DNA of 64,000 bases. Source: Candidatus Poribacteria bacterium. GTDB lineage: Bacteria; Poribacteria; WGA-4E; WGA-3G. The notes under the pieces are model-generated. The model searched no databases and was not told the DNA's origin. It worked only from the letters and a program-made list of their open reading frames with translations. Made by a program: the position numbers and the translations under genes. This document shows positions 3,498 through 64,000 of this stretch, piece after piece; the stretch's first letter is position 1; every line of letters starts with the position of its first letter. Location of the stretch: positions 2,703,521-2,767,520 of the forward strand of contig OZ246979.1 of the NCBI GenBank assembly GCA_965232545.1, written 5' to 3'.

Positions 3498-3789
3498 TAA
3501 TCAAAATCAGTAGACGTGATTTCTCAATCGTACTGACGAGATGAATTCTTACTCTTTAAAATAATACTTGATTTTACATGCAAAATCAAGTTAAAATAGA
3601 ATTTAATGTATCTGAAACTTTTAGTTTGCCCCCTCACAAGCACAATCTAACAGATTATGCTACAAAGATAGCAACCTGTGTTAAAATTAGCATAGAAAAC
3701 CAAGTCAAGCCCGTAGGGGTTGACGACTCCAGAGGAAGGAAGGTTAAATTCCAAAGCCATTCGCTTTAACCGCAAGGAAAATTAAAAAT

Positions 3790-4731
3790 ATGAATTGGCA
3801 ACACCATCCGTGGGCAGGTGTATTTCCGGCGACGCTCTGTCCCTTTCATGAAGATGAAGCAATTGACGAAGCCGGATTACGCGAGTATATGCAGGAACTC
3901 GCAAGTGTTCCGGGGATAAAAGGGGTTGTCTGTAATGGACATACCGGCGAAATCATGTCCCTCCGCTTGCATGAAAGACAGCGCGTTACGCAAATCACCG
4001 CCGAAGCCGTTGGCGATCGGGTTAAAGTTGTTTCAGGGGTTAGTGCGGAAGGAAGTCTCCCAGCAATTGATGACGCACTCGCGGCGAAGGAAGCCGGGGC
4101 GGATGCCATCCTGCTGATGCCTGCACATCACTGGTTGCGTTTTGGTAGGACCCCTGAAACCGCAGTCGGTTACTTTCAGGATGTCGCCGAAGGCGCAGAT
4201 ATACCGATTATTGTTCACCAGTATCCGGCATGGACAAAGGCAGGATATAGCCTTGAAGAGATGTTGGAAATGGTGAAAATCCCACAGGTGATCTGCATTA
4301 AAATGGGCACACGCGACATGGCGCGCTGGCGGTGGGACTATGAACAGTTGAAAGAAGCCGCACCAGACGTGCCTATCCTAACCTGCCATGATGAATATCT
4401 GCTTGCCTCTTTATTGGAAGGAAGTGATGGTGCCCTGATCGGGTTCGCAGGGTTTGTACCGGAGTTGATGGTGGATGTCGTCCACGCCGCACTCAACGAC
4501 GACCTCATCGGTGCACGTAAGGCGCGCAGCCAAGTGGACTCGCTGGCACGAATCGTCTATAACTTCGGTGAACCGAGCAGTGACGCGCATCAGCGAATGA
4601 AATGCGCTCGCTGGTTGATGGGTAGATTCCCGTCAATGACGATGCGTCGACCTTTGCGTCAATTGTCCACAGCCGAAGTAAATAAGATCCGAGCGCGTCT
4701 TGAAGAGACCGGTTATCAGTGTGTTCATTAA
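3790..4731 (+). CDS. Dihydrodipicolinate synthase/N-acetylneuraminate lyase (DapA) family class I aldolase.
   Basis: 313-aa ORF with the DapA-family fold pattern (GVVCNGHTGE, a Schiff-base Lys region VICIKMGT). Preceded by the conserved AACCGCAAGGAAAATTAAAAAT-ATG leader. Confidence 0.7.
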   Translation: MNWQHHPWAGVFPATLCPFHEDEAIDEAGLREYMQELASVPGIKGVVCNGHTGEIMSLRLHERQRVTQITAEAVGDRVKVVSGVSAEGSLPAIDDALAAKEAGADAILLMPAHHWLRFGRTPETAVGYFQDVAEGADIPIIVHQYPAWTKAGYSLEEMLEMVKIPQVICIKMGTRDMARWRWDYEQLKEAAPDVPILTCHDEYLLASLLEGSDGALIGFAGFVPELMVDVVHAALNDDLIGARKARSQVDSLARIVYNFGEPSSDAHQRMKCARWLMGRFPSMTMRRPLRQLSTAEVNKIRARLEETGYQCVH

Positions 4732-11431: not shown

Positions 11432-11526
11432 TTACGTTGAACGAATTTATTATAGTGTAGGCACCCCTGCACCCTACGGAACCTGGCGAGACAGGGGTCC
11501 TCGTCCCACAGGATATACGGAGAATT

Positions 11527-12885
11527 ATGAACAATTCCTATAAAAATGTCATGTTTGTCATCGCCGACGATTGGAGCCGCATCGCGAAATGCTACGGAAA
11601 TGAGGTTATCCGAACCCCGCACATCGATGCATTTGCTGAACGCGGGGTCGTGTTTGACCATGCATTCTGCACAAGTCCTTCGTGTGCCGTGAGTCGCGCC
11701 TGTATTCTCACGGGACAACACAGCCATACGCACGGACAATACGGACACTGCCACGGCATTCACGGATTCCGCACGCACGAATATATGCAATCGGTGCCGA
11801 AAATTCTAAAAGCACACGGATTTGCTACCGCATGCATTGGGAAGAAACACGTTGAACCCGAAAGTGTCTATCCCTTCGATTTTGAACCGAAAGTCGATTC
11901 CCGAAGCCCTGCGGACATAGCAGCGAAAGCCACACAATTTCTCAACGAGAATGCAGATACGCGCTTTTACCTCCATATCGGCAGTAGTTATCCACACCGT
12001 GCTGGCAAAGGATTTGGGAATGACCGGACACATGCTGGCATTCAACCGAGCCCTTATGCCCCAGACGAAATCATTGTACCGAATTTCCTGCCAGACATAC
12101 CCGCTGTCCGCGAAGACCTCGCTGATTACTACGAAAGCGTTTCGCGTTGGGATGCTGTGGTAGGTGCGGTTTTGGAGGCACTTGACGCTTCGGGGCGCGC
12201 AGATGAAACCCTCGTTTTTGTTACGACCGATCACGCGATGCCATTTCCGGGCGCGAAGGCATCCAGTTTTGATAGTGGACATCACTGTCCACTGCTTATT
12301 GCCAGTCCGACGCAACAGAAACGCGGTTTCCACAATCAGGCACTCGTTAATTGGGTAGATTTCTGTCCAACAATGTTGGATTGGTGTGGCGTTGCACACC
12401 CCGATGGAACAGAGGCACTTCCGGGTAGATCGTTGCTCACTGTCTTGGAGGACGATAACCCACATCCGGGCAACGGTGCCTGGGAGGAAACGTATTTTTC
12501 TCACTGTTTCCATGAGGTGACGAACTACTATCCATATCGCGTGCTACGCGGTAGACGGTATAAATACGTCCGTAATCTGGCATACCAACTGGAGACCCCT
12601 CTCCCAAGCGACCTGTTCCGTTCAATCTCATGGACAGCGGTGCGGAACGACAACGTTCAGCAACTCGGTGAGCGACAACGGACCGACTTTCTACAGCAAG
12701 GTCGTGAGGCTTTGTATGATATGCAGAACGACCCAGCGGAGTCGCAAAATCTCATTGATGTGCCAGAATTACAAAACACAGCCAACGAAATGCGTCAAAA
12801 GGTCATCGAATTCCGTCAGAAAACCGAGGATCCATGGCTTGAGCAGTCCTTTCAGGAAGGTGAAACGCAACCTTTTTTCACTTAA
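11527..12885 (+). CDS. Sulfatase (arylsulfatase / N-sulfoglucosamine sulfohydrolase family).
   Basis: N-terminus VMFVIADDW. The active-site region CTSPSCAVSRACILTGQ is CxPxR-like, with Val in the Pro position. Family-typical length of 452 aa. A cognate FGE maturase is encoded at 28527. Confidence 0.85.
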   Translation: MNNSYKNVMFVIADDWSRIAKCYGNEVIRTPHIDAFAERGVVFDHAFCTSPSCAVSRACILTGQHSHTHGQYGHCHGIHGFRTHEYMQSVPKILKAHGFATACIGKKHVEPESVYPFDFEPKVDSRSPADIAAKATQFLNENADTRFYLHIGSSYPHRAGKGFGNDRTHAGIQPSPYAPDEIIVPNFLPDIPAVREDLADYYESVSRWDAVVGAVLEALDASGRADETLVFVTTDHAMPFPGAKASSFDSGHHCPLLIASPTQQKRGFHNQALVNWVDFCPTMLDWCGVAHPDGTEALPGRSLLTVLEDDNPHPGNGAWEETYFSHCFHEVTNYYPYRVLRGRRYKYVRNLAYQLETPLPSDLFRSISWTAVRNDNVQQLGERQRTDFLQQGREALYDMQNDPAESQNLIDVPELQNTANEMRQKVIEFRQKTEDPWLEQSFQEGETQPFFT

Positions 12886-24333: not shown

Positions 24334-24686
24334 GGTTCGTAGTAGCGCAATTCATTGCGCTTTGTGGAAGGTAGATGTGTAGTTGACGCGGTTCATCAAC
24401 AATCTCCGGACCGGTTACGCAAGACGAGAACATTAGTCGAGTTTTAAAGGTCAGTTATTTTAAGTTCGTCGTAAGGAGACCCTTTATCACCTGTGTTACA
24501 GCGCAATGAATTGCGCTACTACGAACAGGAGAAGATGCGAATATGTACCGCTATGAAGGCAACTTCGTCAGCGTGCTAAAGCGCAATGAATTGCGCTACT
24601 ACGAACAGGAAGAGATTGGAATATGTACCGCCATGAAAGCAACTTATTCATCGTGCTAAAGCGCAATAAATTGCGCTACTACGAAC
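24334..24686. repeat. REP (repetitive extragenic palindrome) cluster 5' of the RAYT gene. It has one inverted-orientation REP (24334-24360) and three direct REPs (24501-24526, 24581-24606, 24661-24686) inside an 80-bp tandemly triplicated unit.
   Basis: Imperfect palindrome GCGCAATGAATTGCGC followed by TACTACGAAC. The 80-bp units also repeat the RBS and the first codons (ATGTACCGCTAT) of the transposase. Confidence 0.75.
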
Positions 24687-24702
24687 AGGAAGAGATTGGA
24701 AT

Positions 24703-25311
24703 ATGTACCGCTATCGGGGACTAACACCTGAAGAGAAAACTGAAATCCTGCAGCAGCGACAATCGCATGGTTTCCCACCGCACGCACCACCGCACCTACA
24801 CGATACCGAAGGTTGGTTTTTGATTACTACCGCCACTTATGAACATAAGCGGTACTTCCAGACCAACGAAGAACGAACATGGATACTGGGCGAGTTGCGA
24901 AAAGAACTCCAAATCCCCAACATCTCAATTGGCGGCTGGGTTGTATTATCAAATCATTATCATCTATTGATTAAGTGTCAACCGCTTTCGGTTATCAGTC
25001 AGCCCTTACGTCGGGTTCATGCCCGCACGGCACGTGAATTGAATCGTCGTGACGAACTATCTGGACGGCAAGTTTGGTATCGTTTCAGTGATCGACAGAT
25101 TCGCAGTGAAAGACATTATTACACAACCCTGAACTATATCCACTACAATCCGACAAAGCATAACTACGTGCAAAAACCAAAGGATTGGACCTGTTCAAGT
25201 TTACATTGGTATGAAAAACATTTCGGGATTGAATGGCTGCGGGATCTCTGGCGAACGTATCCTGTACGGGATTATGGAAAAGGATGGGATTGGCAAAATT
25301 CAGGTTCGTAG
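24703..25311 (+). CDS. REP-associated tyrosine transposase (RAYT, IS200/IS605-like HUH Y1 transposase).
   Basis: HUH motif LSNHYHLLIK and a downstream catalytic Tyr region (TTLNYIHYNP). 202 aa. Flanked on both sides by REPs. Confidence 0.8.
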   Translation: MYRYRGLTPEEKTEILQQRQSHGFPPHAPPHLHDTEGWFLITTATYEHKRYFQTNEERTWILGELRKELQIPNISIGGWVVLSNHYHLLIKCQPLSVISQPLRRVHARTARELNRRDELSGRQVWYRFSDRQIRSERHYYTTLNYIHYNPTKHNYVQKPKDWTCSSLHWYEKHFGIEWLRDLWRTYPVRDYGKGWDWQNSGS

Positions 25312-25551
25312 TAAGGCGATTCATCGCCTTGTGGTGAGGAAACCGTCCACATGAATATCTAATCCTGTTTTAAAAGCCTTAAAGATTTACAAATCAAATA
25401 ATGGCAAGACTGAAGACTTGATGAGTTTATATAAGGCTATTTGCAATGGTTTAAAAATTTCCTATGATGAGTCATTTTTTAACAACCCATTTATACCACA
25501 GATGCAAAATAATACCATTTCTGCATAACCGTTTTTCATTAGCAAAAAACC

Positions 25552-25715
25552 GGTTCGCAGTAGCGCAATGAATTGCACCAGGGACATTCGGAAACCTCAT
25601 AGCGTTTCAAAATCTCTGAAATGCGAATTTATCAGGACTTACGCAAAATTGGCTTTCATGCCAAAATTGAGGGGATATTCCCGAAGAAAGCGCAATGAAT
25701 TGCGCTACTACGAAC
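25552..25715. repeat. Two REP copies 3' of the RAYT gene (25552-25576 and 25690-25715).
   Basis: ggttcgcagtagcgcaatgaattgc and gcgcaatgaattgcgctactacgaacc are the same palindrome family as the upstream cluster. Confidence 0.65.
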
Positions 25716-25752: not shown

Positions 25753-26621
25753 TAGGTTGTGTTTACATTTTGTGAGTGGTTACGAGTATTGCTGCGAAAT
25801 AGACGAATCCGAGGTACCGAACACTTAATTTATCGTAGCGCGTCGCGACCCGACGATACTGTTTCAACCACCCAAAGAAACGCTCTATCAAGTTGCGGCG
25901 TTTATACAATTCTTTATCATACTCACGGGGTTCCGTCCGCCCTTTGCGAGGCGGGATCACCGCAATCGCAGCCTCAGACGTGATCTCTGCTATAAACGCA
26001 TCCGAGTCGTAAGCTTTATCACCTATGACATATTCATAGGAATACCCTTCAATTAGCGCAGGAGCTTGTGTAATATCATTGCGGTGTCCCGCTATCAAAA
26101 TAAAACGCAACGGGATACAGGCATCGCTGAGAGACAGATTCAGTTTCGTCGTAAATCCGCCTCGCGTTCGTCCGAGTGCCTGTGCCTCTTGTCCTCCTTT
26201 TTTTTCGGGGCCCCTGCTGCCGAGGCATGTGCCCGCACGATCGTCGAATCAATGAGGATCCCTGAGATGTCGCCAGCATCATGAAACTGTTCATGGAGTG
26301 CTTGAAAAACACCCACATCGCACCATCTACTGAATCGACGATAGATCGCATTCCAATTACCATAGACCTTCGGTAAAGCGCGCCACGTCGCGCCTTCTTT
26401 TGCGATCCAAAGCACAGCAGAGAGAAAGTGCCTGCACGTTTCTGGGTTTCCAACATAGACGTTTCGGCAGTCTTTGAGGAACGGTAAGATGCTATTCCAA
26501 GCAGCATCACTCAACTGCACTGGCAGTTCTTGGGAGTCAACGGCATTTTGAGTTTCCATAAAAAAAGGATACTAAAATCTCTACCAAATGTCAATACCTT
26601 TTCAAATGTAAACACAACCTA
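25753..26621 (-). mobile_element. IS5-family insertion sequence (IS427/IS1031-like group), about 870 bp, with terminal inverted repeats and a probable TA target duplication.
   Basis: IRL (c)taGGTTGTGTTTACATTT at about 25753-25770. IRR is the reverse complement of AAATGTAAACACAACCta at about 26604-26621. It contains two overlapping transposase ORFs. Confidence 0.8.
25763..26559 (-). CDS. IS5-family DDE transposase OrfAB, expressed via a -1 programmed frameshift at an A8G slippery run.
   Basis: OrfA (26140-26559) is N-terminal HTH-like. OrfB (25763-26110) carries DDE-region motifs (VIGDKAYDSD ... ERFFGWLKQYRRVATRYDK). The slippery CCG AAA AAA AAG is on the minus strand at about 26199-26206. 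Confidence 0.75.
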
Positions 26622-28543: not shown

Positions 28544-29585
28544 ACCTGCCAACATTGTACTCATTCCACAGGGCGCGTTCATCATGGGTACCGATATTGA
28601 AGCGTTCTACGGGACTGCCTTAGCCAATTCGGAGCATGCTAAACTTGATGAAGCACCGATGCACATCCGTTTTTTGGGAGCATATCTCATAGACGAGTAC
28701 CCAGTAACAAACGCCGAGTACGCCGCTTTCGTACAGGAAACGAAGCATCCATTCCCGCCACATTGGAAGAACGGCGACTTCGCACCTGAAGAGGCAAACC
28801 TCCCAGTCGTTCATGTAAGTTGGCATGATAGTGCCGCGTATGCACAATGGGCAGGCAAACAACTACCGACAGAGGCAGAATGGGAGAAAGCCTGCCGCGG
28901 TCCCGATGGACGGATCTATCCGTGGGGTAATGTCTTCGTTCCTGATGAATCTGAATCTACAGAAATCCCCGCGGAAACCTTACAGATTTTGACGACGTCC
29001 CTCACTCCTGTAGGCATTCGTCCCGTCACAGTAAGCCCTTACGGGGTCGGTGACGCGGCAGGAAATGTTTGGGAATGGACTGCTGATTGGTATCAACCAT
29101 ATCCTGATCCAAAACCGCTTAAACAGGGAACAGATGATAAACAGAAAGCCTTGCGTGGCGGGTCATGGTTAGAAGTGCGTGATGGCACAGCGGAACGCTA
29201 TTTTCGGTGTGCCAATCGCTTACATGCGCCGCCAGACTATGCCGCCGGAAATATTGGTTTTCGCTGTGTACGCGAGGCACCCCCCGAACAAATCGAATCG
29301 GTGCATGTCCCTGTGGAACCACTCGCTGACTATGTAAAGCAACGGAAGTTAAGTAACCTGCGTCTCCTTCAAAAACGGACAGAAAAGAACAGCCTCAAAG
29401 ATACGCTCATTGCTGTTCTGCTCATCGGTGGAGGGGTTTATAGTATTGTGGTAAATCCTGAACTGGTGTTGGGTGGTATCACCGTAGGGGTCGTCGGTAT
29501 TGGATTTCTTTTCAGTGCGAGTGTGAATTTCTGGCGGAGGTGGCGTGCAGTAAAGCGATCAAAGCAAGTGGCGTCTGATATTTAA
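28527..29585 (+). CDS. Formylglycine-generating enzyme (FGE/SUMF1) family protein with a C-terminal TM anchor.
   Basis: YPVTNAEYAAFV, WHDSAAYAQWAGKQLPTEAEWEKACRG, GNVWEWTADWY, RGGSW and GFRCV are all FGE-sulfatase domain hallmarks. A hydrophobic C-terminus follows. Confidence 0.85.
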   Translation: MRQEVKPANIVLIPQGAFIMGTDIEAFYGTALANSEHAKLDEAPMHIRFLGAYLIDEYPVTNAEYAAFVQETKHPFPPHWKNGDFAPEEANLPVVHVSWHDSAAYAQWAGKQLPTEAEWEKACRGPDGRIYPWGNVFVPDESESTEIPAETLQILTTSLTPVGIRPVTVSPYGVGDAAGNVWEWTADWYQPYPDPKPLKQGTDDKQKALRGGSWLEVRDGTAERYFRCANRLHAPPDYAAGNIGFRCVREAPPEQIESVHVPVEPLADYVKQRKLSNLRLLQKRTEKNSLKDTLIAVLLIGGGVYSIVVNPELVLGGITVGVVGIGFLFSASVNFWRRWRAVKRSKQVASDI

Positions 29586-29831
29586 TTTTACCTTGCGGAG
29601 TAATCAAGGACGTTTGAACTCTTGTGTGCGTCCTCCCTATCCGTCCTCCATTTCATTACGGACTACGGGTTCCAACACACAAAGACAAACGGCAACACCT
29701 CTACAAAACGGCAGTTTGCAACAACGATGCAAGTGGACCTTAAAATGCACATTGACCGAAATTTGAATTCAGTGTAAAATTTAGCAAACTCAAGCATTGC
29801 GACCTTAAGTCGCTTCTACAAGGGGAGAATA

Positions 29832-55354: not shown

Positions 55355-55447
55355 TCTTGTGTAACAAGTTTTAGTAACCCGCAAGTTACACCAAAAATTC
55401 TGTAAGGCGAGGCGTCCATGCCTCGCCGCTTTATCCTCTAAAACCAA

Positions 55448-56527
55448 ATGTCCACACTAAAAATCGCAAACATAGAGACTGAAGTCGTTCAGGTAAACCA
55501 CCGTGGCAATTGGGTCTTCATTAAAGTCCATACCGACGATGGCACAGTTGGTGTTGGCGAGGCTTCCCACGGTAAAAATGACGCGAGCGTCCAACATACC
55601 ATTAACACACTCAAACCTACGCTCGTAGGCTGGAATCCATTTCAGCTCGAAGCATTTCGTCAGCGTTTCTATCACGACTCTGAAAGCCACACTTACCATA
55701 CCGCTCTCAGCGGAATTGAGCAGGCGATGTATGATCTGATAGGCAAAGCTCTGGATGTGCCGAGTTATCAATTATTGGGTGGCAAGTGTCGAGAAAAAAT
55801 ACGGCTTTACGCCAACATCAACCGTGCGACCCTCGATCGCAGTCCTTCCGGTTTCGCCACCAACGCCGAGCGCGCCGTTGCGGAGGGGTTTACTGCCATA
55901 AAATGCGCACCCTTTGACGATGTTTCCGTCGCGAATGTTTCACGCGGGACACTCACCCCTGCTATCTGCACCGGAATAGACCGCATCCGCGCAATTCGAG
56001 CCACGATTGGTGCGGATATCGATCTAATGGTGGACTGTCATAGCCGTTTTAATCCCGGTATTCTCATCCAAGTCGCAAAGGAACTGGAGGACTTGCATCT
56101 CTTCTGGATTGAGGATGCAGTGTCATTGGATAATCTCGATGCCTTCGCTTATATGAGCCACTCTATTGGTATCCCGATTGCAACCGGCGAACGCTTACGA
56201 ACTCTCATGGATTTTGATAGGTTGTTAACCCAAGCACACGTTGATTATATTTTGCCGGATGTCAAACACGTTGGTGGAATTTCAGGTTTGAAAAAAATCG
56301 CGACGCTTGCAGCTGCGCGAAATATCATGGTAACACCTCACAATCCGAGCGGTCCCGTCGCGACTGCTGCGAGTGTGCAATGTATGGCGAGCGTCCCGAA
56401 TTTCGCAATCCTCGAATACGCGTGGGGAGAAGTAGACTGGCGTGCTTCTCTCATTGATCCACCCGAAGAAATCGTTGATGGATTTATTGAAGTGCCTTCC
56501 CGAACCGGACTCGGCATTACACTTTAA
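55448..56527 (+). CDS. Enolase-superfamily enzyme (mandelate racemase/muconate lactonizing enzyme family, likely a sugar-acid dehydratase).
   Basis: The N-terminal capping domain (VFIKVHTDDGTVGVGEAS) and barrel-domain metal-ligand positions are conserved. 359 aa. Confidence 0.8.
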   Translation: MSTLKIANIETEVVQVNHRGNWVFIKVHTDDGTVGVGEASHGKNDASVQHTINTLKPTLVGWNPFQLEAFRQRFYHDSESHTYHTALSGIEQAMYDLIGKALDVPSYQLLGGKCREKIRLYANINRATLDRSPSGFATNAERAVAEGFTAIKCAPFDDVSVANVSRGTLTPAICTGIDRIRAIRATIGADIDLMVDCHSRFNPGILIQVAKELEDLHLFWIEDAVSLDNLDAFAYMSHSIGIPIATGERLRTLMDFDRLLTQAHVDYILPDVKHVGGISGLKKIATLAAARNIMVTPHNPSGPVATAASVQCMASVPNFAILEYAWGEVDWRASLIDPPEEIVDGFIEVPSRTGLGITL

Positions 56528-56546
56528 AATATATGAGGAGTTTTAA

Positions 56547-57323
56547 ATGATACCTCGCAATCTCGACAGACAAATCACAAAATCTATTTCTCTTTGTCTC
56601 TTGCTACTTGTCTTTACCCTTGCTGGGTGTCTCGGAAATATGCAGTCGATGCAAACAGCAACCGACGCGCCTGCTTCCACCACAGCAGAGACGGAAGAAT
56701 CATCACGTCCGCTTGTGGAACTCCAACTCTCAACACCTAAAACAAATTATACTGCCAAGGAAGAGATCCCGCTTGAACTCAATATTCAGAACGGCAAATT
56801 TGACCTTCTCGTGCCTTCTTTTAGTGTTGCGACAAAGGGTGCCTTTACGCAGATAACGGTGAAGGACACGAACCAACAGATTGTGGAACCGAAGCGAGCG
56901 ATTACACAAGAGAACCCACAGAAATATGTAAAGCAAGACGGAAAATCCGTCCGATGTATTCACGGATTTGACTTCAAAGCAGACGCGAATCAGGAACTGA
57001 CACTGAAAGATATTCAGCGATACTATCAGTTACAACCCGGAACTTACACCATAACACTCGCAATTGATTTGGAAGTTTACCGGGAATCCATAATCGAGGA
57101 TCACCCGGAAGTGGTTGAGTTGCAACGGGATCTGGCACGGCTTCAGAATGACCCGAATCTTCAAGCCGCTGCAAAGCAGGACGCTCTCAACTATTACCAA
57201 GAACAGATTAAATTTATTAAAGAGAGAAACAAGGATGAAGTGAAGGATATTTACCTACCCGTTAAATCGCGGCGCGGAAAGGCACCCCTTGTCTCCAACG
57301 ACATCACAATAATGATAGAGTAG
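56547..57323 (+). CDS. Hypothetical lipoprotein.
   Basis: Signal peptide with a lipobox (LAGC) followed by a Thr/Ala-rich linker. No recognised domain. Confidence 0.5.
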   Translation: MIPRNLDRQITKSISLCLLLLVFTLAGCLGNMQSMQTATDAPASTTAETEESSRPLVELQLSTPKTNYTAKEEIPLELNIQNGKFDLLVPSFSVATKGAFTQITVKDTNQQIVEPKRAITQENPQKYVKQDGKSVRCIHGFDFKADANQELTLKDIQRYYQLQPGTYTITLAIDLEVYRESIIEDHPEVVELQRDLARLQNDPNLQAAAKQDALNYYQEQIKFIKERNKDEVKDIYLPVKSRRGKAPLVSNDITIMIE

Positions 57324-57692
57324 AGGATTTACGGAGATATTATGAGTTGCAGAAAGGCAATTACACAATCGTACTCGCCTCAGATGGAGACTTTGTCCAA
57401 AAAATGGACGGCGTTATAGATAGTAAGCCAATGTGTGGGTTTGATCCGTCAGTTTTGCCTGTCTCGCCGCAGCTGCAATTGCTAACAACCACATGGGGTG
57501 AAATCAAAAGCCAAGACTGAATCCAGACGTTGGAGAGGTGTTCTCGTGAAAAGTAGGTATGAACTTGATGTCCTCGCGTCCGTTAAAAATTTTACTTGCA
57601 AATTAGTGAAAAATGATATATAATTTTAATCAACGAAATCGTAATAGGCACGAAAGTTTTCGCTATATCGCAGTTCCCAAGGATAATCCAGA

Positions 57693-58103
57693 ATGCTTTT
57701 TAACTTCGCAAATGTGCTAATTTTCTTGATTGTTGGCTGTGTATTTGTCGTCCTAAACCTTACTGTCTCTCGCCTCCTGCATACCAAGCTGTTCTCAGGC
57801 GAAAAGTATATCCCTTATGAATGCGGTGAAGATCCGATCGGTGATACGCGGATCAAGTTTAACACCCGCTTCTACGTTATCGCGCTCATTTTCCTAATCT
57901 TTGATGTGGAAACCGTGTTCCTTTTCCCGTGGGCAGTTGTTTTCCGGGATTTCGGGCTTTTCGCATTTCTGGAGATGCTCGTTTTCATCGCTATTCTGTT
58001 AGTCGGGCTGGCATACGTCTGGGCAAAGGGAGATCTGGAGTGGATCCGATCCACGCAGTTGGAAGTCCAATCCGTCCGGAGGGAAGAAAGTTATGATAAT
58101 TGA
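57693..58103 (+). CDS. nuoA: NADH-quinone oxidoreductase subunit A.
   Basis: Three-TM protein with the conserved YECGEDP...FLIFDVE motifs. It is the first gene of the nuo operon. Confidence 0.9.
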
Positions 58104-58677
58104 TGAGAAACTGGACAAAAACATTATTGTTACTTCAGTTGATGCCGTCGCCAACTGGGCACGTTCCTCCGCCCTCTGGCCCATGACGTTCGGACTCGCC
58201 TGTTGTGCTATTGAATTTATGGCGACTGCCGCCTCCAACTACGACCTCGACCGCTTCGGGGCAGGTGTGCCGCGCGCGACACCGCGTCAATCCGATCTCA
58301 TGGTGATCTCCGGCACCGTAACACTCAAAATGGCAACGCGAATCAAGCGGCTTTATGAACAGATGCCGGAACCGAAATACGTCATTTCAATGGGAAGTTG
58401 CGCTACCAGTGGCGGACCCTATTGGCAACACGGGTACCACGTCCTCAAAGGTGTCGATCGGATTATCCCTGTTGATGTTTATGTACCTGGGTGTCCACCA
58501 CGTCCAGAAGCACTTATTGAAGGGTTGCTCAAGTTACAAGAGAAGATTAAAACCCAGACTGTTGCGAAACGCGATCATGTACCGTTCCTAAAGAGACTCT
58601 TCACCAAAACTGAGTGGTACGAAATTGAAGGCACTGAAACCGCCGAAGAAGGCGATGAGGCTGAAACTACCGCCTAA
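58093..58677 (+). CDS. nuoB: NADH-quinone oxidoreductase subunit B (N2 Fe-S cluster subunit).
   Basis: Cys ligands CCAIEFM...SCATSGGPY...PGCPP. It overlaps nuoA by 11 nt. Confidence 0.9.
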
Positions 58678-58737
58678 AATACCAGTTCGTTCAACGGTAA
58701 GCGTGATTCGTAATCGCGATCATGGAGCAGGAAGTAC

Positions 58738-59223
58738 GTGAAAATAGAAGAAATCTATGAAGTTCTAACCAAACAGTTCGGTGAAGCCATCCTCGGTTTT
58801 GATGCCGAACTCGCTGGTGACCCAAACATACACATTGCCCCCTCAGCCATCGCCGATGTGTGCCAATATCTCGCCGAAACCGACACATTGGCATTTGATT
58901 CCCTGATGTGTCTCAGTGGTGTTGATTTGAGTGCCAAGGATGAAGATTTTGCTATCGTTTATCATATCTATGCCATGCAACACCGGCATAGCGTAGTTCT
59001 GAAAACGGCAGTCTCGAAAACCGATCCGCGCCTTTCAAGCGTTTCGCATATATGGAAAACCGCAGATTGGCACGAACGTGAAGCTTATGACCTCTACGGA
59101 ATCCTCTTTGAGGGACACAGCGATCTCCGCCGCATCCTGCTCCCCGATGATTGGGAGGGATATCCCCTACGTAAGGATTACACGGAACCTGAATTCTATC
59201 GCGGTATGCGTGTGCCTTATTAG
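58738..59223 (+). CDS. nuoC: NADH-quinone oxidoreductase subunit C (30-kDa subunit).
   Basis: Conserved WHEREAYDLYGILFEGHSDLRRIL segment. Confidence 0.85.
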   Translation: MKIEEIYEVLTKQFGEAILGFDAELAGDPNIHIAPSAIADVCQYLAETDTLAFDSLMCLSGVDLSAKDEDFAIVYHIYAMQHRHSVVLKTAVSKTDPRLSSVSHIWKTADWHEREAYDLYGILFEGHSDLRRILLPDDWEGYPLRKDYTEPEFYRGMRVPY

Positions 59224-59462
59224 GTATAGAGAGATTGAGTTTTCGTTTTGTGTCACGCTACACAGAAAATGTTACACTTTTAATCTTTTTTCGCTTTTTT
59301 CGCGGCGAAGCACAGAACCCAAAACGTTTCCAAACTCAGGCAGGACGTAGGTTTATGGGACGTGAATGCTAAGCATGAAATGTTACAGTAGTGTAACATT
59401 TTCCTATGGGAATGGGTAGGCAAATTACAACATAAACCTTCCCTGAAAAAACAGGGTAAGAT

Positions 59463-59491
59463 TTGACATTGAATGGCAAAAGTGGTATCAT
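59463..59491 (+). promoter_or_regulatory. Near-consensus internal promoter (TTGACA-17-TATCAT) upstream of nuoD.
   Basis: ttgacattgaatggcaaaagtggtatcat. A perfect palindrome AAATGTTACAgtagTGTAACATTT lies about 70 bp upstream. Confidence 0.4.
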
Positions 59492-59533
59492 ATATACGGG
59501 TAAAGTCCACAGATGTGGAGACGAATCAGAAAT

Positions 59534-59654
59534 CAAATCCGTAGTTCGTAACGAAGTGGAGGACGGTTTTCGAGAAAGGCGCGTCGAAGTTTTAGGGGAA
59601 ACACCCAAGCAAAAACACCCATGCCGTTTAACCGCAAGGTAAAATTAAAGAATG
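59534..59654 (+). repeat. Conserved 5'-leader module before nuoD: an upstream box AAATCCGTAGyyCGTAAcGaaGtGGAGG, a variable or invertible middle, and AACCGCAAGGTAAAATTAAAgaATG.
   Basis: The same bipartite module precedes nuoI (62231-62353) and nuoJ (63097-63196). The 3' box alone precedes the gene at 3790 (3768-3792). An antisense copy of the 3' box is at 29581-29600. Confidence 0.6.
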
Positions 59655-60857
59655 GAAACGACACCTCAGACTGAAAGCAAAATTATAGAACTAAAACCGT
59701 TCGCCGATGAAATGGTTGTCAATATGGGACCTCAGCATCCAAGCACACATGGTGTGTTACGCTTGGAATTGAAATTGGATGGTGAGGTAGTTCGGGAAGC
59801 AATTCCGCACATCGGCTATCTGCATCGCTGTTTTGAGAAGCACTCCGAGAATCTCTCCTACCCCCAAATTATTCCCTTTACCGACCGAATGGATTACGTA
59901 GCGGCAATGAACCAGAATTGGGGATTCTGTCTTGCTGTTGAGAAATTGATGGAAGCGGATGAAAGCCGGGAATTCGAGGTACCAGAACGAGCGGAATACT
60001 TACGGGTACTTATTTGTGAATTGAATCGTATTGCGAGCCATCTCCTCTCTTTTGGAACCTACGGGATGGACCTCGGCGCGTTTACCCCGTTTCTCTATGC
60101 TTTCCGGGATCGGGAACGCTTACTCCTACTCTTCGAGAAAGTGTGTGGCGCACGGCTCACCTATAACTATATCCGCATCGGTGGGGTCTCCGAAATTATT
60201 TCTATGGAGCCGGGTTCGATTACCGAACAGAATTTTTTGGATGAGATCGAAGAATTCTTAGACTACTTTGAACCGAAGATTGACGAGTATAACGAACTTT
60301 TGACAAAAAACAGCATCTTCACCGAACGTACAACAGAGGTCGCTGTCATGTCAGCAGAGATGGCACTCAGCTACGGCGCGACGGGTCCTAACCTTCGCGG
60401 TTCGGGTGTTGATTGGGATTTACGACGAGACGAACCCTACTCTATTTATGACCGGTTCGACTTTGATGTGCCTGTCGCCGTGGACGTCCCAGAATTAGGA
60501 TCGGTCGTTGGGGATTGCTGGAGTCGATACAAAATACGCATGGATGAAATGAAAGAGTCTGTCCGGATTGTGCGACAGATTTTAGCGGAAGGACTCCCCG
60601 GTGGTCCAGTAATGGCGGATTTGAAAGCTGTCCGTCCACCGAAAGGCGAAATCTATTTCCGCAGTGAAGCTCCGCGCGGTGAACTCGGATTCTACATTGT
60701 CAGCGATGGCACACCGAAGCCGGTCCGTCTCAAGGGACGTTCCCCCTGTTTCAGTGCTTTGAGCGCACTCCAAGAACTCAGTCGCGGTTTGATGGTCGCA
60801 GATATTATCGCGATTATCGGCAGCATTGATATTGTGATGGGAGAAGTGGACCGGTAG
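59652..60857 (+). CDS. nuoD: NADH-quinone oxidoreductase subunit D (49-kDa subunit).
   Basis: MNMGPQHPSTHGVLRLELKLDGE... and the C-terminal RSPCFSAL motif. It is a separate gene from nuoC. Confidence 0.9.
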   Translation: METTPQTESKIIELKPFADEMVVNMGPQHPSTHGVLRLELKLDGEVVREAIPHIGYLHRCFEKHSENLSYPQIIPFTDRMDYVAAMNQNWGFCLAVEKLMEADESREFEVPERAEYLRVLICELNRIASHLLSFGTYGMDLGAFTPFLYAFRDRERLLLLFEKVCGARLTYNYIRIGGVSEIISMEPGSITEQNFLDEIEEFLDYFEPKIDEYNELLTKNSIFTERTTEVAVMSAEMALSYGATGPNLRGSGVDWDLRRDEPYSIYDRFDFDVPVAVDVPELGSVVGDCWSRYKIRMDEMKESVRIVRQILAEGLPGGPVMADLKAVRPPKGEIYFRSEAPRGELGFYIVSDGTPKPVRLKGRSPCFSALSALQELSRGLMVADIIAIIGSIDIVMGEVDR

Positions 60858-60925
60858 ACATACCTGATAGGATTTGATGCTAATTTTTGTAGATGGAAGA
60901 TTTCCGAATCAGACGAGGAGGTTCG

Positions 60926-62191
60926 ATGTCGGATTTTAGGGCACTGTTTGCAAGCCCAAATTTCAACATATCTGAAAGTTTCTTACCCAATATAAACTTA
61001 CAGAATCAACTCAATTGGGCGGAGGAATTTATACAGAACGTTGTAATCCCGCGGTTGCCGGAAGCGGTTGCTTCGCATTTTCCTGTGGAGATAGGCACAG
61101 TTCTCGTCATGTTTGCATGTGCCGGCATCTTTGTTGGAGTCGTCCCATTACTTCCGTTGGTATTGGTGCTTGCAGAGCGAAAAGTCTCCGCACGTTTTCA
61201 GAACCGAACGGGTCCTATGCGCGTCGGACCGTGGGGCACACTGCAAACGTTAGCCGACGGTGTAAAACTCATCTTCAAAGAGGATTTTATTCCACCACAA
61301 GGCGATAAACTCCTTTTCCTTCTTGCCCCTTATATCATTTTTGCCTGCTCTTTCGCCGTCTTCGCTGCTATTCCGTTCAGTCAAGGTATATTGGTGAGCG
61401 ACTTTAATATTGGTATCTTCTATATCATGGCGATCTCCTCTGTGATTGTCATGGGGGTAATCATGGCGGGTTGGTCCTCAAACAGCAAATGGTCACTGTT
61501 GGGGTCGCTCCGCTCCGCCGCTCAGATTGTCAGTTATGAAATTCCGCTCGGTCTCTCTATTCTCACTGTTGTTATGCTCGTCGAAAGTTTGAGCATGCAG
61601 GAAATTGTCGCAAGCCAATCTAATGGCGTTTTCAGTTGGCTCATTTTCCGAACACCGTTTGCCTTTATCGCATTCTTTATCTTCTTTATCTCTTCCATTG
61701 CTGAGGTAAACCGGACACCGTTTGATTTGCCCGAAGCCGAATCTGAAATCGTGGCGGGTTTCCATACCGAGTATAGCGGTATGCGCTTCGCACTTTTCTT
61801 CATTGCGGAATATGCTAATATGTTCGCCGTGAGCGCAATTGCTGTGACGCTTTTTCTCGGCGGTTGGGAAGGGGTCTTACCGGGTTACGATATTCTCGGT
61901 GGGTTCCCCGGTTTCGTTATTAAATCCTTGGCACTCGTCTTCTTGATGATGTGGTTGAGATGGACACTGCCGCGCCTACGGGTAGATCAGTTGATGAATC
62001 TCTGTTGGAAATACTTCATCCCGATCGCCTTCTTTAACATCTTAGGCACTGGTATCTGGGGACTCATTTTCCCAGAGGACACCGTGATTAGCACCGCCAT
62101 TAGCTGCGCAATTATCTATATTGGACTTATCGCCGCATACAAAGTCGCTGGACGCGGTCTCGCACAGAGACCCGCACCCCAACCGAGTTAA
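60926..62191 (+). CDS. nuoH: NADH-quinone oxidoreductase subunit H. It follows nuoD directly, with no nuoEFG. It could alternatively start at 60893.
   Basis: LAERKVSARFQNRTGPMRVGPWGTLQTLADGVKL and a polytopic topology. Confidence 0.9.
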   Translation: MSDFRALFASPNFNISESFLPNINLQNQLNWAEEFIQNVVIPRLPEAVASHFPVEIGTVLVMFACAGIFVGVVPLLPLVLVLAERKVSARFQNRTGPMRVGPWGTLQTLADGVKLIFKEDFIPPQGDKLLFLLAPYIIFACSFAVFAAIPFSQGILVSDFNIGIFYIMAISSVIVMGVIMAGWSSNSKWSLLGSLRSAAQIVSYEIPLGLSILTVVMLVESLSMQEIVASQSNGVFSWLIFRTPFAFIAFFIFFISSIAEVNRTPFDLPEAESEIVAGFHTEYSGMRFALFFIAEYANMFAVSAIAVTLFLGGWEGVLPGYDILGGFPGFVIKSLALVFLMMWLRWTLPRLRVDQLMNLCWKYFIPIAFFNILGTGIWGLIFPEDTVISTAISCAIIYIGLIAAYKVAGRGLAQRPAPQPS

Positions 62192-62350
62192 AGCTTTTCG
62201 TCTAACAAAGGGTTTCTCTTAGGCGAGTCTCAAAATCCGTAGTCCGTAAGCGTAGCGGAGGGGTTTTTGCTTGGGTGTTTCCCCTAGATCTACCGGAAGG
62301 CTCATGAGATACGAAACCGAGCTGACCGAACCGCAAGGTAAATTAAAAAA

Positions 62351-63070
62351 ATGGACAAATACATACGAAACATTTACAGAGGCGTTTACACCGTTCTCGT
62401 CGGGATGCGGGTGACAATCAGGCAGTTCTTTGAACCGAATGTCACGCATCAATATCCGTATGAACACGATTTTGAAAAGAAACGGAACGTTCGAGAGATT
62501 CCGAAAGGGTATCGCGGGCAGCTTTATAACCGCACTGAAGATTGTATCGGATGCAAAAAATGCGAGATGATCTGCCCGGTCGATTGTATCACTATTGATG
62601 CCACTAAACTCCCAAAAGGTGAACAACTCTGGGATAGCATGAACGTCGTTCATCTCAAAGACGGACGGGAAATCATCGGTCTCATTGAAGGCAACGATAA
62701 AAAGATAAAGTCGGAAGATTCGATAACCCTCACGAATATCACCTCTCGCCAAGGCCCGCAGGAGGTCATAGACCGCCTTGAGCCATCAGGTGTTGAGAAT
62801 CGAACCCGAACCTTTTCCAGCGACGAGGTATCACGTGTTGTTACCCGAAATCCGGTCGTTTTCTACCTCGATCAGTTCGATATTGATATGTCCCTCTGTA
62901 TGTATTGTGGGCTTTGTACCGAGGTGTGTCCAACAGAATGCCTGACGATGAAGGATACACTCGCAGGTATTGAGTACTCCAAATTTGACCGGTCAGATCT
63001 AATCTTTAAGTTTGACAAGCAGGAGATGTACGACAAAGGGAGTACCGAGGAAGTGGATGCCGCGGATTAG
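62351..63070 (+). CDS. nuoI: NADH-quinone oxidoreductase subunit I (2x[4Fe-4S] ferredoxin) with a 70-80 aa insertion between the two cluster motifs.
   Basis: CIGCKKCEMICPVDCI and CMYCGLCTEVCPTECL are separated by about 110 aa, versus about 30 in canonical NuoI. Confidence 0.85.
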   Translation: MDKYIRNIYRGVYTVLVGMRVTIRQFFEPNVTHQYPYEHDFEKKRNVREIPKGYRGQLYNRTEDCIGCKKCEMICPVDCITIDATKLPKGEQLWDSMNVVHLKDGREIIGLIEGNDKKIKSEDSITLTNITSRQGPQEVIDRLEPSGVENRTRTFSSDEVSRVVTRNPVVFYLDQFDIDMSLCMYCGLCTEVCPTECLTMKDTLAGIEYSKFDRSDLIFKFDKQEMYDKGSTEEVDAAD

Positions 63071-63193
63071 TAGGTAAATTGGGAAAGTATGAGCATCAAA
63101 TCCGTAGCCCGTAAGCGTAGCGGAGGGCGGATATACGTTGCGTAGCGTGATGTATCTAATCTCCCTGACCGAACCGCAAGGTAAAATTAAAAT

Positions 63194-63712
63194 ATGGAAT
63201 TTACGCTCAAAACCTTTATTTTTTACGGCTTTGCCCTGATGACAATTTCATCCGCGCTTGTCGTTGTCACAGTACGAAACATTGTCCATGCGGCGTTTTC
63301 GCTTATGGTGACACTTTTCGGTGTTGCAGGGCTTTATGTCTTTTTACAGGCTGATTTTCTTGCCGCAACACAAGTGATTGTCTACGTCGGCGGCATACTT
63401 GTTCTCATTTTATTCGGTGTCATGATGACAAGCGGACGCTTGGAGATGCGGATTCATATTGAACGCGGGCAACTTCTGCTCGGTGGCGTGGTCTCGCTGG
63501 CACTGCTCATGCTGCTCTTGACTGTTATTGCGAATACACCGGCATGGAAGAATCTCACTGATGATGGCACCGAACTTCCACCGACAACAGAACGCATTGG
63601 CGAGTTGATTCTGGACGGACCATTTCTCTTGCCATTTGAAGTCGTCTCTGTACTACTGTTAGTCGCATTAATCGGAGCCGCCCTAATTTCCCGAAAGGAG
63701 GTTAGGGACTAA
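63194..63712 (+). CDS. nuoJ: NADH-quinone oxidoreductase subunit J.
   Basis: Five-TM protein with a NuoJ-like pattern. Lies between nuoI and nuoK. Confidence 0.85.
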   Translation: MEFTLKTFIFYGFALMTISSALVVVTVRNIVHAAFSLMVTLFGVAGLYVFLQADFLAATQVIVYVGGILVLILFGVMMTSGRLEMRIHIERGQLLLGGVVSLALLMLLLTVIANTPAWKNLTDDGTELPPTTERIGELILDGPFLLPFEVVSVLLLVALIGAALISRKEVRD

Positions 63713-63812
63713 GATAGCCATCAGCCATCAGCCATCAGTCACAAGAGTCTTTTGTTAAACGAAATCTTCTTTACTGAAAGCCGATAGCCGATAGCCGATA
63801 GCCACTAAAAAA

Positions 63813-64000
63813 ATGACGCTACAACACTACCTCGTTATCAGTGCGATCCTGTTCACGCTCGGCATTTTCGCCGTTTTGACCCGACGGAACGCTATTAGTA
63901 TTCTGATGGGAATTGAACTTATTCTTAATTCGTGTAATCTTAACTTTGCCGCATTTGCGCGTTTTATGACCCCGCCGGAGGACATCAGCGGACAGATTAT
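63813..64000 (+). CDS. nuoK: NADH-quinone oxidoreductase subunit K (partial; the 3' end is beyond the window).
   Basis: My own translation MTLQHYLVISAILFTLGIFAVLTRRNAISILMGIELILNSCNLNFAAF... is typical of NuoK. Confidence 0.8.
   Translation, partial: MTLQHYLVISAILFTLGIFAVLTRRNAISILMGIELILNSCNLNFAAFARFMTPPEDISGQI

Follow-up and report, generated by a model that had tools for sequence, protein, structure and literature searches.

The window analysed in this study, a stretch of 64,000 nt from Candidatus Poribacteria bacterium (contig OZ246979.1, positions 2,703,521 to 2,767,520), contained five copies of a modular, intergenic repeat unit with a canonical length of about 96 nt, four of which directly preceded the start codons of a DHDPS-family gene, nuoD, nuoI and nuoJ. 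The unit belongs to a Poribacteria-wide family, which is present in many genomes of these sponge symbionts. Its 5' half is a tagged palindrome of the REP type, and its 3' end carries a conserved box with the core CCGCAAGG, placed 12 nt before the ATG. On balance, we favour the reading that the box end of this REP-type repeat serves as a portable translation-initiation region, and the unit is probably a movable "gene-start cassette". An earlier note on this DNA, made from the letters alone, had offered a translational leader, a regulatory RNA motif and a miniature repeat as candidates. The translational leader is the best supported of the three, since the unit replaced the Shine-Dalgarno (SD) spacer of nuoI as well as the native leader of nuoD.

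Anatomy and distribution of the repeat unit

The 3' box AACCGCAAGGWAAAATTAAA was found five times in the window with 0-2 mismatches, at 3768, 59630, 62329 and 63172 on the plus strand and at 29581-29600 on the minus strand, in agreement with the earlier note; dinucleotide-preserving shuffles gave an expectation of 0.01 matches per window and never five. Each of the four sense boxes was followed by an ATG, always 12 nt past CCGCAAGG, and each of these ATGs opened a long open reading frame (ORF). The second box that had been seen upstream of the three nuo copies was also confirmed, as a CCGTAG tag followed by a hairpin. A scan of the window with the covariance model R1, which was built from 47 canonical copies, gave five units and no further copies (Table 1). 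The copy at 3768 was a full-length match too (3693-3792), with a degenerate hairpin. The antisense box reported at the end of the FGE gene is indeed present, but it had to be extended to a complete unit with its own 5' box, and the overlap of this unit with the FGE-sulfatase gene is limited to the TAA stop (29583-29585), which is supplied by the reverse complement of the box end. The copies in the window were located in a 5' untranslated region (UTR) or between cistrons; unit C was placed inside a 5' UTR, as judged from the promoter-like site upstream of it.

Table 1. Coordinates of the repeat units, their parts and other listed sites in the window
Feature	Position	Strand	Remarks
Promoter-like sites upstream of unit A	3568-3602		Outside the unit
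Unit A	3693-3789	+	Leader of DHDPS-family gene (ATG 3790; Pfam for the gene); model 64.8 bits, E 2.5e-12
Parts of unit A	Tag CCGTAG 3711-3716; box CCGCAAGG 3770-3777; A/T spacer 3778-3789	+	Hairpin degenerate
REP GGTTCGTAGTAGCGCAATTCATTGCGCT copies	~24335; ~25303; ~25553	+
REP GGTTCGTAGTAGCGCAATTCATTGCGCT copies	~24519; ~24599; ~24679; ~25708	-
REP GGTTCGTAGTAGCGCAATTCATTGCGCT variant	22131	-
Unit B	29576-29674	-	Antisense between two plus-strand genes; model 80.8 bits
Parts of unit B	Tag 29663-29668; P1 29643-29663; box 29591-29598	-
Sigma-70-type promoter-like site TTGACA-17-TATCAT, with TG	59463-59491	+	11/12 matches; nuoC-nuoD spacer; outside the repeat
Unit C	59533-59651	+	nuoD leader (ATG 59652); two adjoining model matches
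Parts of unit C	Tag 59539-59544; P1 59544-59564; box 59632-59639; spacer 59640-59651	+
Nested small module of unit C	59595-59620		Inverted relative to unit D
5' extension module TTTTCGTCTAAC..TCTCTTAGGCG..CAAAAT	62195-62236	+	Attached to unit D
Unit D	62237-62350	+	nuoI leader (ATG 62351)
Parts of unit D	Tag 62237-62242; P1 62242-62260; box 62331-62338; spacer 62339-62350	+
Nested module GGGGTTTTTGCTTGGGTGTTTCCCC of unit D	62260-62284		Makes a terminator-like hairpin with T-run
Unit E	63096-63193	+	nuoJ leader (ATG 63194); canonical; best match in the window, 84.2 bits, E 9e-17
Parts of unit E	Tag 63102-63107; P1 63107-63128; linker; box 63174-63181; spacer 63182-63193	+

From 5' to 3', the unit consists of an A-run, the CCGTAG tag (variants CGCAAG, CGCAG and CATAG), the hairpin P1, GG with a linker, CCGCAAGG, a 12-nt spacer composed almost only of A and T, and the ATG. 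GTAG was contained in the CCGTAG tag of all five window copies, and in the 47-sequence alignment its A was invariant and its final G was kept in at least 90%; since the stem's 3' C is the partner of this last G, the tag is not wholly unpaired. The linker of about 45 nt occurred in at least three types, ATATACGG..CCTGACCGAA, ATTTAAG..GTTTCT or GTTTAA, and ACTCGAACAC..ACTTAT. P1 was 21-22 nt long, with a stem G-YYY...RRR-C that varied as CCC/GGG, TCC/GGA, CTC/GAG, CTT/AAG and CCT/AGG, and three interior forms were seen, GTAAYGNARTGGA, the fully paired GCCTGC-AACAACGGC-GCAGGC, and GTCCAAAAC-AAC-GTTTTGGAC. The covarying stem of the main subtype had 4 bp around a 13-nt interior, and the stems of the second and third forms had 6 bp and 9 bp. 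Among the 147 model matches, 92% of the stem cells were standard pairs, and 105 cells were changed on both sides compared with 33 in column shuffles, a value that none of 500 shuffles reached. When the 3' partner was moved by one column as a control, the pairing fell to 63-72%.

The earlier description of a structured element therefore holds for the strongly covarying 5' hairpin but not for the segment between hairpin and box, which was no more stable than shuffled sequences (mean z = -0.2 in sense and -0.4 in antisense). A second hairpin (P2), pairing the region after P1 with the region before the box, was rejected, as the single-sequence folds disagreed with each other and RNAalifold showed P1 only. 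The miniature repeat in the strict sense of a miniature inverted-repeat transposable element could not be upheld either, because no terminal inverted repeats joined the ends of the unit in four window copies and the flanks of the copies were not duplicated. No conserved small ORF was found inside the unit, and in the TAAAATTAAANN form TAA codons stood at -12 and -6 in frame with the ATG; a translational coupling of the MIRU type was ruled out on the ground of the missing small ORF.

Nesting and arrays were both seen. In a second length class, the distance from hairpin to box was 89-91 nt instead of 68-70 nt, owing to a module of about 21 nt, GGTTTTTGCTTGGGTGTTTC, which occurred in either orientation and in different positions, behind P1, within its loop or close to the box. 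This explains the 25-nt segment that had been noticed in opposite orientations in the nuoD and nuoI copies, which was recovered at 59598-59617 (minus strand, one mismatch) and 62262-62281 (plus strand, no mismatch) with none expected by chance. The fetched loci, designated by L numbers below, included a filled and empty pair for this module (L062/L068 vs L035) and further hairpin modules nested within it (L033 vs L040). Tandem arrays of units, for example three at 137-nt spacing in L094, and tandem boxes at 21-nt spacing were also observed. The 5' extension module of unit D stood 5' of units at four non-orthologous loci (L020, L041, L059 and L099) as well as at the orthologue L034.

When the box pattern CCGCAAGGWAAAWTWAAA was scanned against one genome per species of bacteria and archaea, at least 116 stretches of reference genomes were matched, and of the 80 stretches listed all but 8 were titled Poribacteria, often with several matches per 8-kb stretch among the Poribacteria stretches listed. 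Six of the eight others were single matches in other phyla, and those that were read had no upstream hairpin. The element thus represents a dispersed repeat family, as first suggested, rather than a local coincidence. Model R1 gave 147 matches with E < 1e-3 in 100 fetched loci. One of these loci, L034 (Poribacteria chromosome OX639992.1), was 94-96% identical to the window at 55427-62668. A search of the window and of 143 kb of unit-rich loci against Rfam 15 gave no match at the gathering score, and across 59450-63250 there was none even at E values of up to 10. The proteins encoded behind the box comprised 132 Pfam families among 87 proteins, the commonest family being represented five times. 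With such unrelated downstream genes and the Rfam result, a regulatory RNA motif of the riboswitch kind, or any curated cis-regulatory RNA, was ruled out, and the diversity of families also ruled out a functional regulon defined by gene class. Membership in an Rfam family was rejected, as Rfam gave no match at any threshold; a "Poribacteria-1" motif could not be verified in the literature.

The position of the box relative to genes was highly constrained. Based on crude ORF calls in the fetched loci, an ORF of 60 aa or more began within 0-4 nt of the box in 85 of 155 pattern matches, 64 of them at one exact offset, while only 15% of random positions had an ORF start in the wider range of 0-15 nt. 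The spacer between GG and ATG was 12 nt long in most copies (72 of 95) and deviated by one nucleotide, to 11 or 13 nt, in a further 18; its inner TT was found at position 6 or 7 and was followed by an A-run of 6 or 5, two changes that compensate each other and keep the total length. Of the 152 model matches considered for placement, 70 abutted a start, with a co-directional upstream gene in 61 of these 70, and 27 lay in antisense between co-directional genes. The gap from the unit to the upstream ORF was variable, with a median of about 60-100 nt.

Turnover of the unit at orthologous nuo loci

The nuo loci L117-L121, L198 and L199 were fetched through NuoI homologues of 83-92% identity, which avoided the bias of selection by the box. 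In six genomes, nuoH and nuoI were separated by spacers of 14-44 nt that contained an SD, for example TTGGAGGGAACATCTAA|ATG, AAAGGAGAGATCTGAAA|ATG and AAGGAACATTGATC|ATG. The same interval in the window and in L034 measured 159 nt and was filled from the nuoH stop to the ATG by the extension module and unit D, without any native remnant; by comparison with the orthologues, the spacer overwritten in this lineage included a canonical GGAGG Shine-Dalgarno. An antisense unit was docked on the nuoH stop in L199 (CTTTTAA|TTTTACCTTGCGG), and there the native SD was kept (GGAAGGATCTAAA|ATG). Between nuoI and nuoJ, five genomes (L117, L118, L120, L121 and L198) had short or unrelated spacers of 21-77 nt and no unit of the family, and L119 had a diverged relative (136 nt). 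L199 carried a unit at the same site as the window and with the same 5' flank, which belonged to another subtype with the stem GCTT/AAGC and the ATTTAAG linker.

The nuoC-nuoD spacer recorded successive states of this process. The sigma-70-type site TTGACA-17-TATCAT was conserved in eight genomes (the window, L034, L117-L120, L198 and L199). In L117, L119, L120 and L198 it was followed by a native nuoD leader of about 55 nt ending in ACCCGCATT|ATG, and the leader in L118 was longer and different. In L199, two tandem units and a third box had entered the spacer, leaving the final 17 nt of the native leader, GAACCCGCATT|ATG, in place. L034 had the same first unit as L199, but the native remnant was gone and the box stood 12 nt from the ATG. 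The window was identical to L034 in both flanks, up to 59508 and from the last box on, but its unit body was a different family member. An evolutionary series was thus caught, from insertion into a leader through loss of the native remnant and a probable takeover of initiation to later exchange of the body.

Other loci showed the same kinds of change. In orthologous pairs with about 80% DNA identity, the box was kept and the upstream body was different; in the box-selected pairs L022/L038 and L037/L043, the bodies were swapped and the box was kept. The pair L096/L044 showed decay of the box from CCGC to CCAT, and L044/L093 a filled and an empty site. In L014 and L086, the unit faced either of two divergent genes, abutting the start in L086 and lying 7 nt from a likely GTG in L014. 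As read from these alignments, units at the nuo loci have been inserted, swapped, tandemly multiplied and inverted.

The box end as a proposed start of translation and the competing explanations

In the mechanism that we propose, the GTAG-tagged REP-type palindrome P1 in the 5' half would probably be a mobility or recombination module, and the 3' end, with the invariant CCGCAAGG, exactly 12 A/T bases and the start codon, would form the portable initiation region. The latter would combine a weak Shine-Dalgarno (AAGGA or AAGGU), a fixed distance and an unstructured A/U-rich landing tract. Units would enter spacers, be swapped for other members of the family, expand into tandem arrays and themselves receive smaller hairpin modules, and a box end that lands 12 nt ahead of an ATG would take over initiation from the native leader. 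As the only SD of the conserved and intact nuoI and the whole nuoD leader were replaced, the repeat would have to supply the translation start of these genes. The AAGGA or AAGGU of the box is found at -16 to -12 from the ATG. The predicted unpaired probability of the spacer was 0.76-0.87 at -10 to -1, compared with 0.45-0.57 for SD-led control genes. The other genes of the window had ordinary GGAG-type SDs. The anti-SD seems canonical in this group, as ten 16S genes with a putative Poribacteria probe site ended in GGATCACCTCCTTTCT. Outside the search pattern, the positions of CCGCAAGG were kept at 89-97% each in the copies found by the model, and the A/T part varied. This conservation, the pairs that kept the box while the body changed, and the series from L199 to L034, which ended at 12 nt, together speak for selection that acts on the box and on its spacing from the ATG, and against a mere insertion footprint.

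Several observations weigh against this reading. The duplex between box and anti-SD had a free energy of -4.0 to -5.3 kcal/mol, compared with -6.4 to -12.4 kcal/mol for the native nuoI sites, and SD pairing does not account for the strictly conserved CCGC. The six bases that follow GG, WAWAWT, had the profile of a -10 hexamer (A2 86%, T6 100%, TATAAT variants) and spanned -12 to -7 relative to the A of the ATG. For P1, G-U pairs and A-C mismatches numbered 9 and 5, counts too small to decide between an RNA hairpin and a DNA palindrome, and the P2 segment, where a second hairpin had first been expected, lacked excess stability. Of the 27 antisense units, 19 docked their box end on the stop of the upstream gene, at -11 to +5 nt, usually with the TAA inside TTTTAATTTT serving as that stop, as exemplified by unit B and the FGE-sulfatase gene; the box end thus seeks ORF boundaries even where initiation is impossible. 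Finally, no copies were present in about 100 kb of other Poribacteria loci fetched irrespective of the box, which indicates that the density depends strongly on the lineage and that the five units in 64 kb of the window are not typical of all lineages. Taking the pairing energies and the CCGC together, the box would best be described as a weak-SD, A/U-rich initiation region with an extra recognition element beyond SD pairing.

The -10-like profile could also mean that the unit is a mobile promoter, in which WAAAWT would be the -10 hexamer, transcription would start from the A of the ATG to give leaderless mRNAs, and CCGCAAGG would be an upstream promoter element or activator site. The position of the hexamer, its best-kept A2 and T6, its TATAAT and CATAAT variants and the very tight spacing from box to ATG all suit such a promoter; the module nested in unit D converts P1 into a terminator-like hairpin with a T-run upstream of the box, and mobile promoter-bearing repeats are known (PMC3575422). 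We nevertheless hold this to be quite unlikely. Neither the alignment nor a consensus scan revealed a -35-like hexamer at 16-18 nt in any linker type, hexamer position 1 was A instead of T in about half of the copies, and the constant length was that from GG to ATG, not that from T6 to ATG. The consensus scan gave no sigma-70-type site usable from inside a unit; the single in-unit match (63165-63193, 9/12) had its -10 abutting the nuoJ ATG. Moreover, the units lay downstream of good sigma-70 promoters or between nuo cistrons, and mostly after a co-directional gene, where a second promoter would be superfluous. A sigma-54 reading of the conserved bits (GGCAC..) was discarded along with the CsrA reading (GGA), as neither motif occurred in all subtypes.

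That all eight bases of CCGCAAGG were kept beyond the need of SD pairing points in another direction, to a trans-acting factor (an RNA-binding protein, a DNA-binding regulator or an antisense RNA) that would bind the box with or without P1 and co-regulate the genes, as has been proposed for Neisseria REP2. REP2 precedes 14 co-induced genes (PMC3184786), the functionally unrelated genes behind the units would fit a global regulon, and the antisense 3'-UTR copies such as unit B would give an RNA that could pair with the box at 18 of 20 nt. No candidate factor emerged, however, and the GGA sites considered for a CsrA-type protein were missing from the P1 variants GCCTGC..GCAGGC; we rate a shared factor as rather improbable, although it is compatible with the portable initiation region. 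In a bolder and equally improbable proposal, the box would be a common leader that places many unrelated genes, including the complex I subunits, under one post-transcriptional control, through a factor binding CCGCAAGG or an antisense RNA from the inverted 3'-UTR copies, and that is spread and reshuffled by REP-type machinery. If so, an uncultivated sponge symbiont would harbour a cis-encoded bacterial analogue of the shared spliced leader, one that evolves through the exchange of cassettes.

The docking on stop codons would also fit units that are selfish repeats of the REP/BIME type without host function, whose distribution would result from a preference for A/T-rich, TTAA- or TAA-like target sites at gene boundaries together with purifying selection against other insertions. 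The REP-like GTAG tag and palindrome of P1, a REP-associated tyrosine transposase (RAYT) with its own REP family in the genome, and the nesting, tandem arrays and swaps typical of such repeats are in line with this, and TTAAA or TCTAA is a common ending of native spacers ahead of the ATG. We consider it fairly unlikely all the same. In the essential and conserved nuoI the only SD was replaced, so that something in the unit would now have to drive initiation; the box was conserved more than the unit body; the series from L199 to L034 removed the native remnant between box and ATG and restored the 12 nt; and about 80% of the units were co-oriented with the flanking genes. The initiation region carried by a REP-type repeat therefore remains our preferred explanation. 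It would make the box a practical marker of true start codons for the annotation of Poribacteria, and would link REP-type palindromes, which normally lie behind genes, to the control of the start of the next gene, possibly as a shared layer of expression control in sponge symbionts.

An extended pairing of the box with 16S rRNA was rejected, as the sole complementarity was to a strand locked in a stable hairpin, the 3' strand of helix 45. As a separate observation, the box core CAAGGTA and the tag CCGTAG were identical in sense to adjacent pieces of the 16S 3' domain (ACAAGGTAGCCGTAGGGGAACCTGCGG; 16S loci L127, L146, L163 and others), and CCGCA(A)GG was complementary to the 3' strand of helix 45, with a rough chance estimate of about 0.002 before post-hoc correction.

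Comparison with known repeats and neighbouring features

Neisseria REP2 and Borrelia IR-A/IR-B are repeats of 120-150 bp without terminal inverted repeats, with 5' stem-loops, placed directly upstream of unrelated genes, and they carry a promoter, a ribosome-binding site (RBS), an ATG and 5' UTR sequence (PMC3184786). A 2011 review called REP2 "a unique class" and named the Borrelia IR as its only look-alike (PMC3184786). By description, these are the closest in kind to the Poribacteria unit, which likewise is dispersed, falls with them in a size range of about 100-150 bp and is fused at its 3' end to a putative RBS and the ATG, as seen in the one exact offset of 64/155 boxes and the 12 nt from GG to ATG of 72/95 copies. 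The differences are also clear. REP2 has its own promoter, whereas none was found inside the Poribacteria units; it has about 26 copies in one genus, whereas this family is phylum-wide, with many subtypes, tandem arrays, nested modules and cassette swaps. REP2 has two internal stem-loops near the 5' end and is stated to be unrelated to REPs, while the Poribacteria unit has one supported stem-loop, P1, which is of the GTAG-REP type. In addition, about a fifth of the Poribacteria copies are antisense and dock on stop codons, unlike REP2. The family may thus be regarded as a relative in kind of the REP2/IR upstream repeats, and homology to any of the compared families is not claimed. Repeats with a ready-made gene start are rare, and the same idea as in REP2 is now seen in another phylum and in more forms.

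P1 also resembled the GTAG REP/BIME elements (PMC3733652) in its short palindrome directly flanked by a GTAG tag, its compensatory stem variants and its large-loop subtypes, and the family resembled them in its high copy number, intergenic location, tandem clusters carrying flanking DNA, ends that supply stop codons and a RAYT in the genome. With 21-22 nt, P1 falls within the 20-40 bp palindromes of the GTAG-REP superfamily; of the 6-13 bp stems of that superfamily, the 4-bp main subtype falls short, and the 6- and 9-bp subtypes are within the range. REPs are found near the 3' end of the upstream ORF and at a variable distance from the downstream ORF (PMC3733652). The placement of the Poribacteria units is the opposite, being fixed to the downstream start (70/152 abutting it) with a variable upstream gap, and the unit is made of a hairpin, a 45-nt linker and a box instead of a REP dimer. 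MIRUs and mobile promoters are looser parallels. The former (PMC3184786) are 40-100-bp repeats in operon spacers, often tandem and with ends touching the neighbouring ORFs, but they contain small ORFs that overlap the flanking genes, whereas the Poribacteria units have no conserved ORF and two in-frame TAA before the ATG. Mobile promoters and promoter reuse (PMC3575422) share the near-identical upstream regions before non-homologous genes; the Poribacteria units differ in that they share the last 20 nt before the ATG and a REP-type hairpin but no recognisable promoter, the promoter-like sites lying outside the unit.

The RAYT gene of the window (24703-25311; Y1_Tnp, 21.7 bits) has homologues named REP-associated tyrosine transposase. 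This gene and three orthologues, in four genomes in total, were flanked by another GTAG REP, GGTTCGTAGTAGCGCAAT..ATTGCGCT. A link of the P1 units to the window RAYT was not supported, given this different flanking family, and no enzyme is thus linked to P1; no further RAYT paralogues were present in the fetched loci, whole genomes not having been searched. The RAYT region, 24335-25715, contained its own GTAG-tagged REP family, GGTTCGTAGTAGCGCAATTCATTGCGCT, flanking the gene. Three of its minus-strand copies (24519, 24599 and 24679) lay in 80-nt tandem repeats, each together with the first ~20 nt of the RAYT gene, and the orthologues in three other genomes had the same REP type as inverted pairs. 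Another GTAG REP family, CCCGTAGGGGCTGGGTTTCCCAGCCCGC, was seen in L100 and L102 (e.g. L102 at ~1900-2010), and the nuoC-nuoD spacer of L118 contained GTAGGCGAGGTTTCCTAACCTCGCC; several families of GTAG-tagged palindromes therefore exist in Poribacteria. Next to the RAYT region, 25763-26559 on the minus strand carried fragments of an IS4/IS5-family transposase, with DDE_Tnp_1 in one ORF and DUF4096 in another; the upstream ORF of the pair was preceded by TTGACA-17-TATCCT-6-ATG, an arrangement of the leaderless type.

Some features of the nuo cluster were observed besides the units. In the nuoC-nuoD spacer, the promoter-like site at 59463-59491 was preceded by two further elements (59266-59281 and 59380-59399), a palindrome, ATGTTACA-GTAG-TGTAACAT, and an upstream half-site, AAAATGTTACACTTTT; both were conserved in L117, L119, L198 and L199 together with a strong internal TTGACA-17-TATCAT site. 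From its sequence, this arrangement resembles an internal, regulated promoter that would serve nuoD and the genes downstream. In each of the eight genomes read, nuoD was directly followed by nuoH, with no nuoE, nuoF or nuoG between them. For nuoH, the probable start is ATGTCGGATTTTAGG at 60926 (SD GAGGAGG), which all orthologues share, rather than the ATG of the longest ORF at 60893. The nuoJ-nuoK spacer (63713-63815) measured 103 nt in the window and 0-37 nt in seven other Poribacteria, and it contained the heptamer arrays (AGCCATC)x3 at 63716-63736 and (AGCCGAT)x3 at 63779-63799. Similar heptamers, (AGTTATC)n followed by GTTAAAGAG, stood 5' of units in L073, L082 and L087. These arrays presumably recall the heptamer STRR repeats of cyanobacteria.

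At 11457-11529, a GTAG-tagged hairpin (GTAGGCACCCCTGCACCCTACGG...) was followed by the central motif of the unit, GGATATACGGAGA, directly before the ATG of the gene at 11527. This is a truncated relative, in which the GGAG of the linker seems to act as Shine-Dalgarno, and a similar arrangement (..GCAAGCGGATCAGGAGG-N15-ATG) preceded nuoL in L199.

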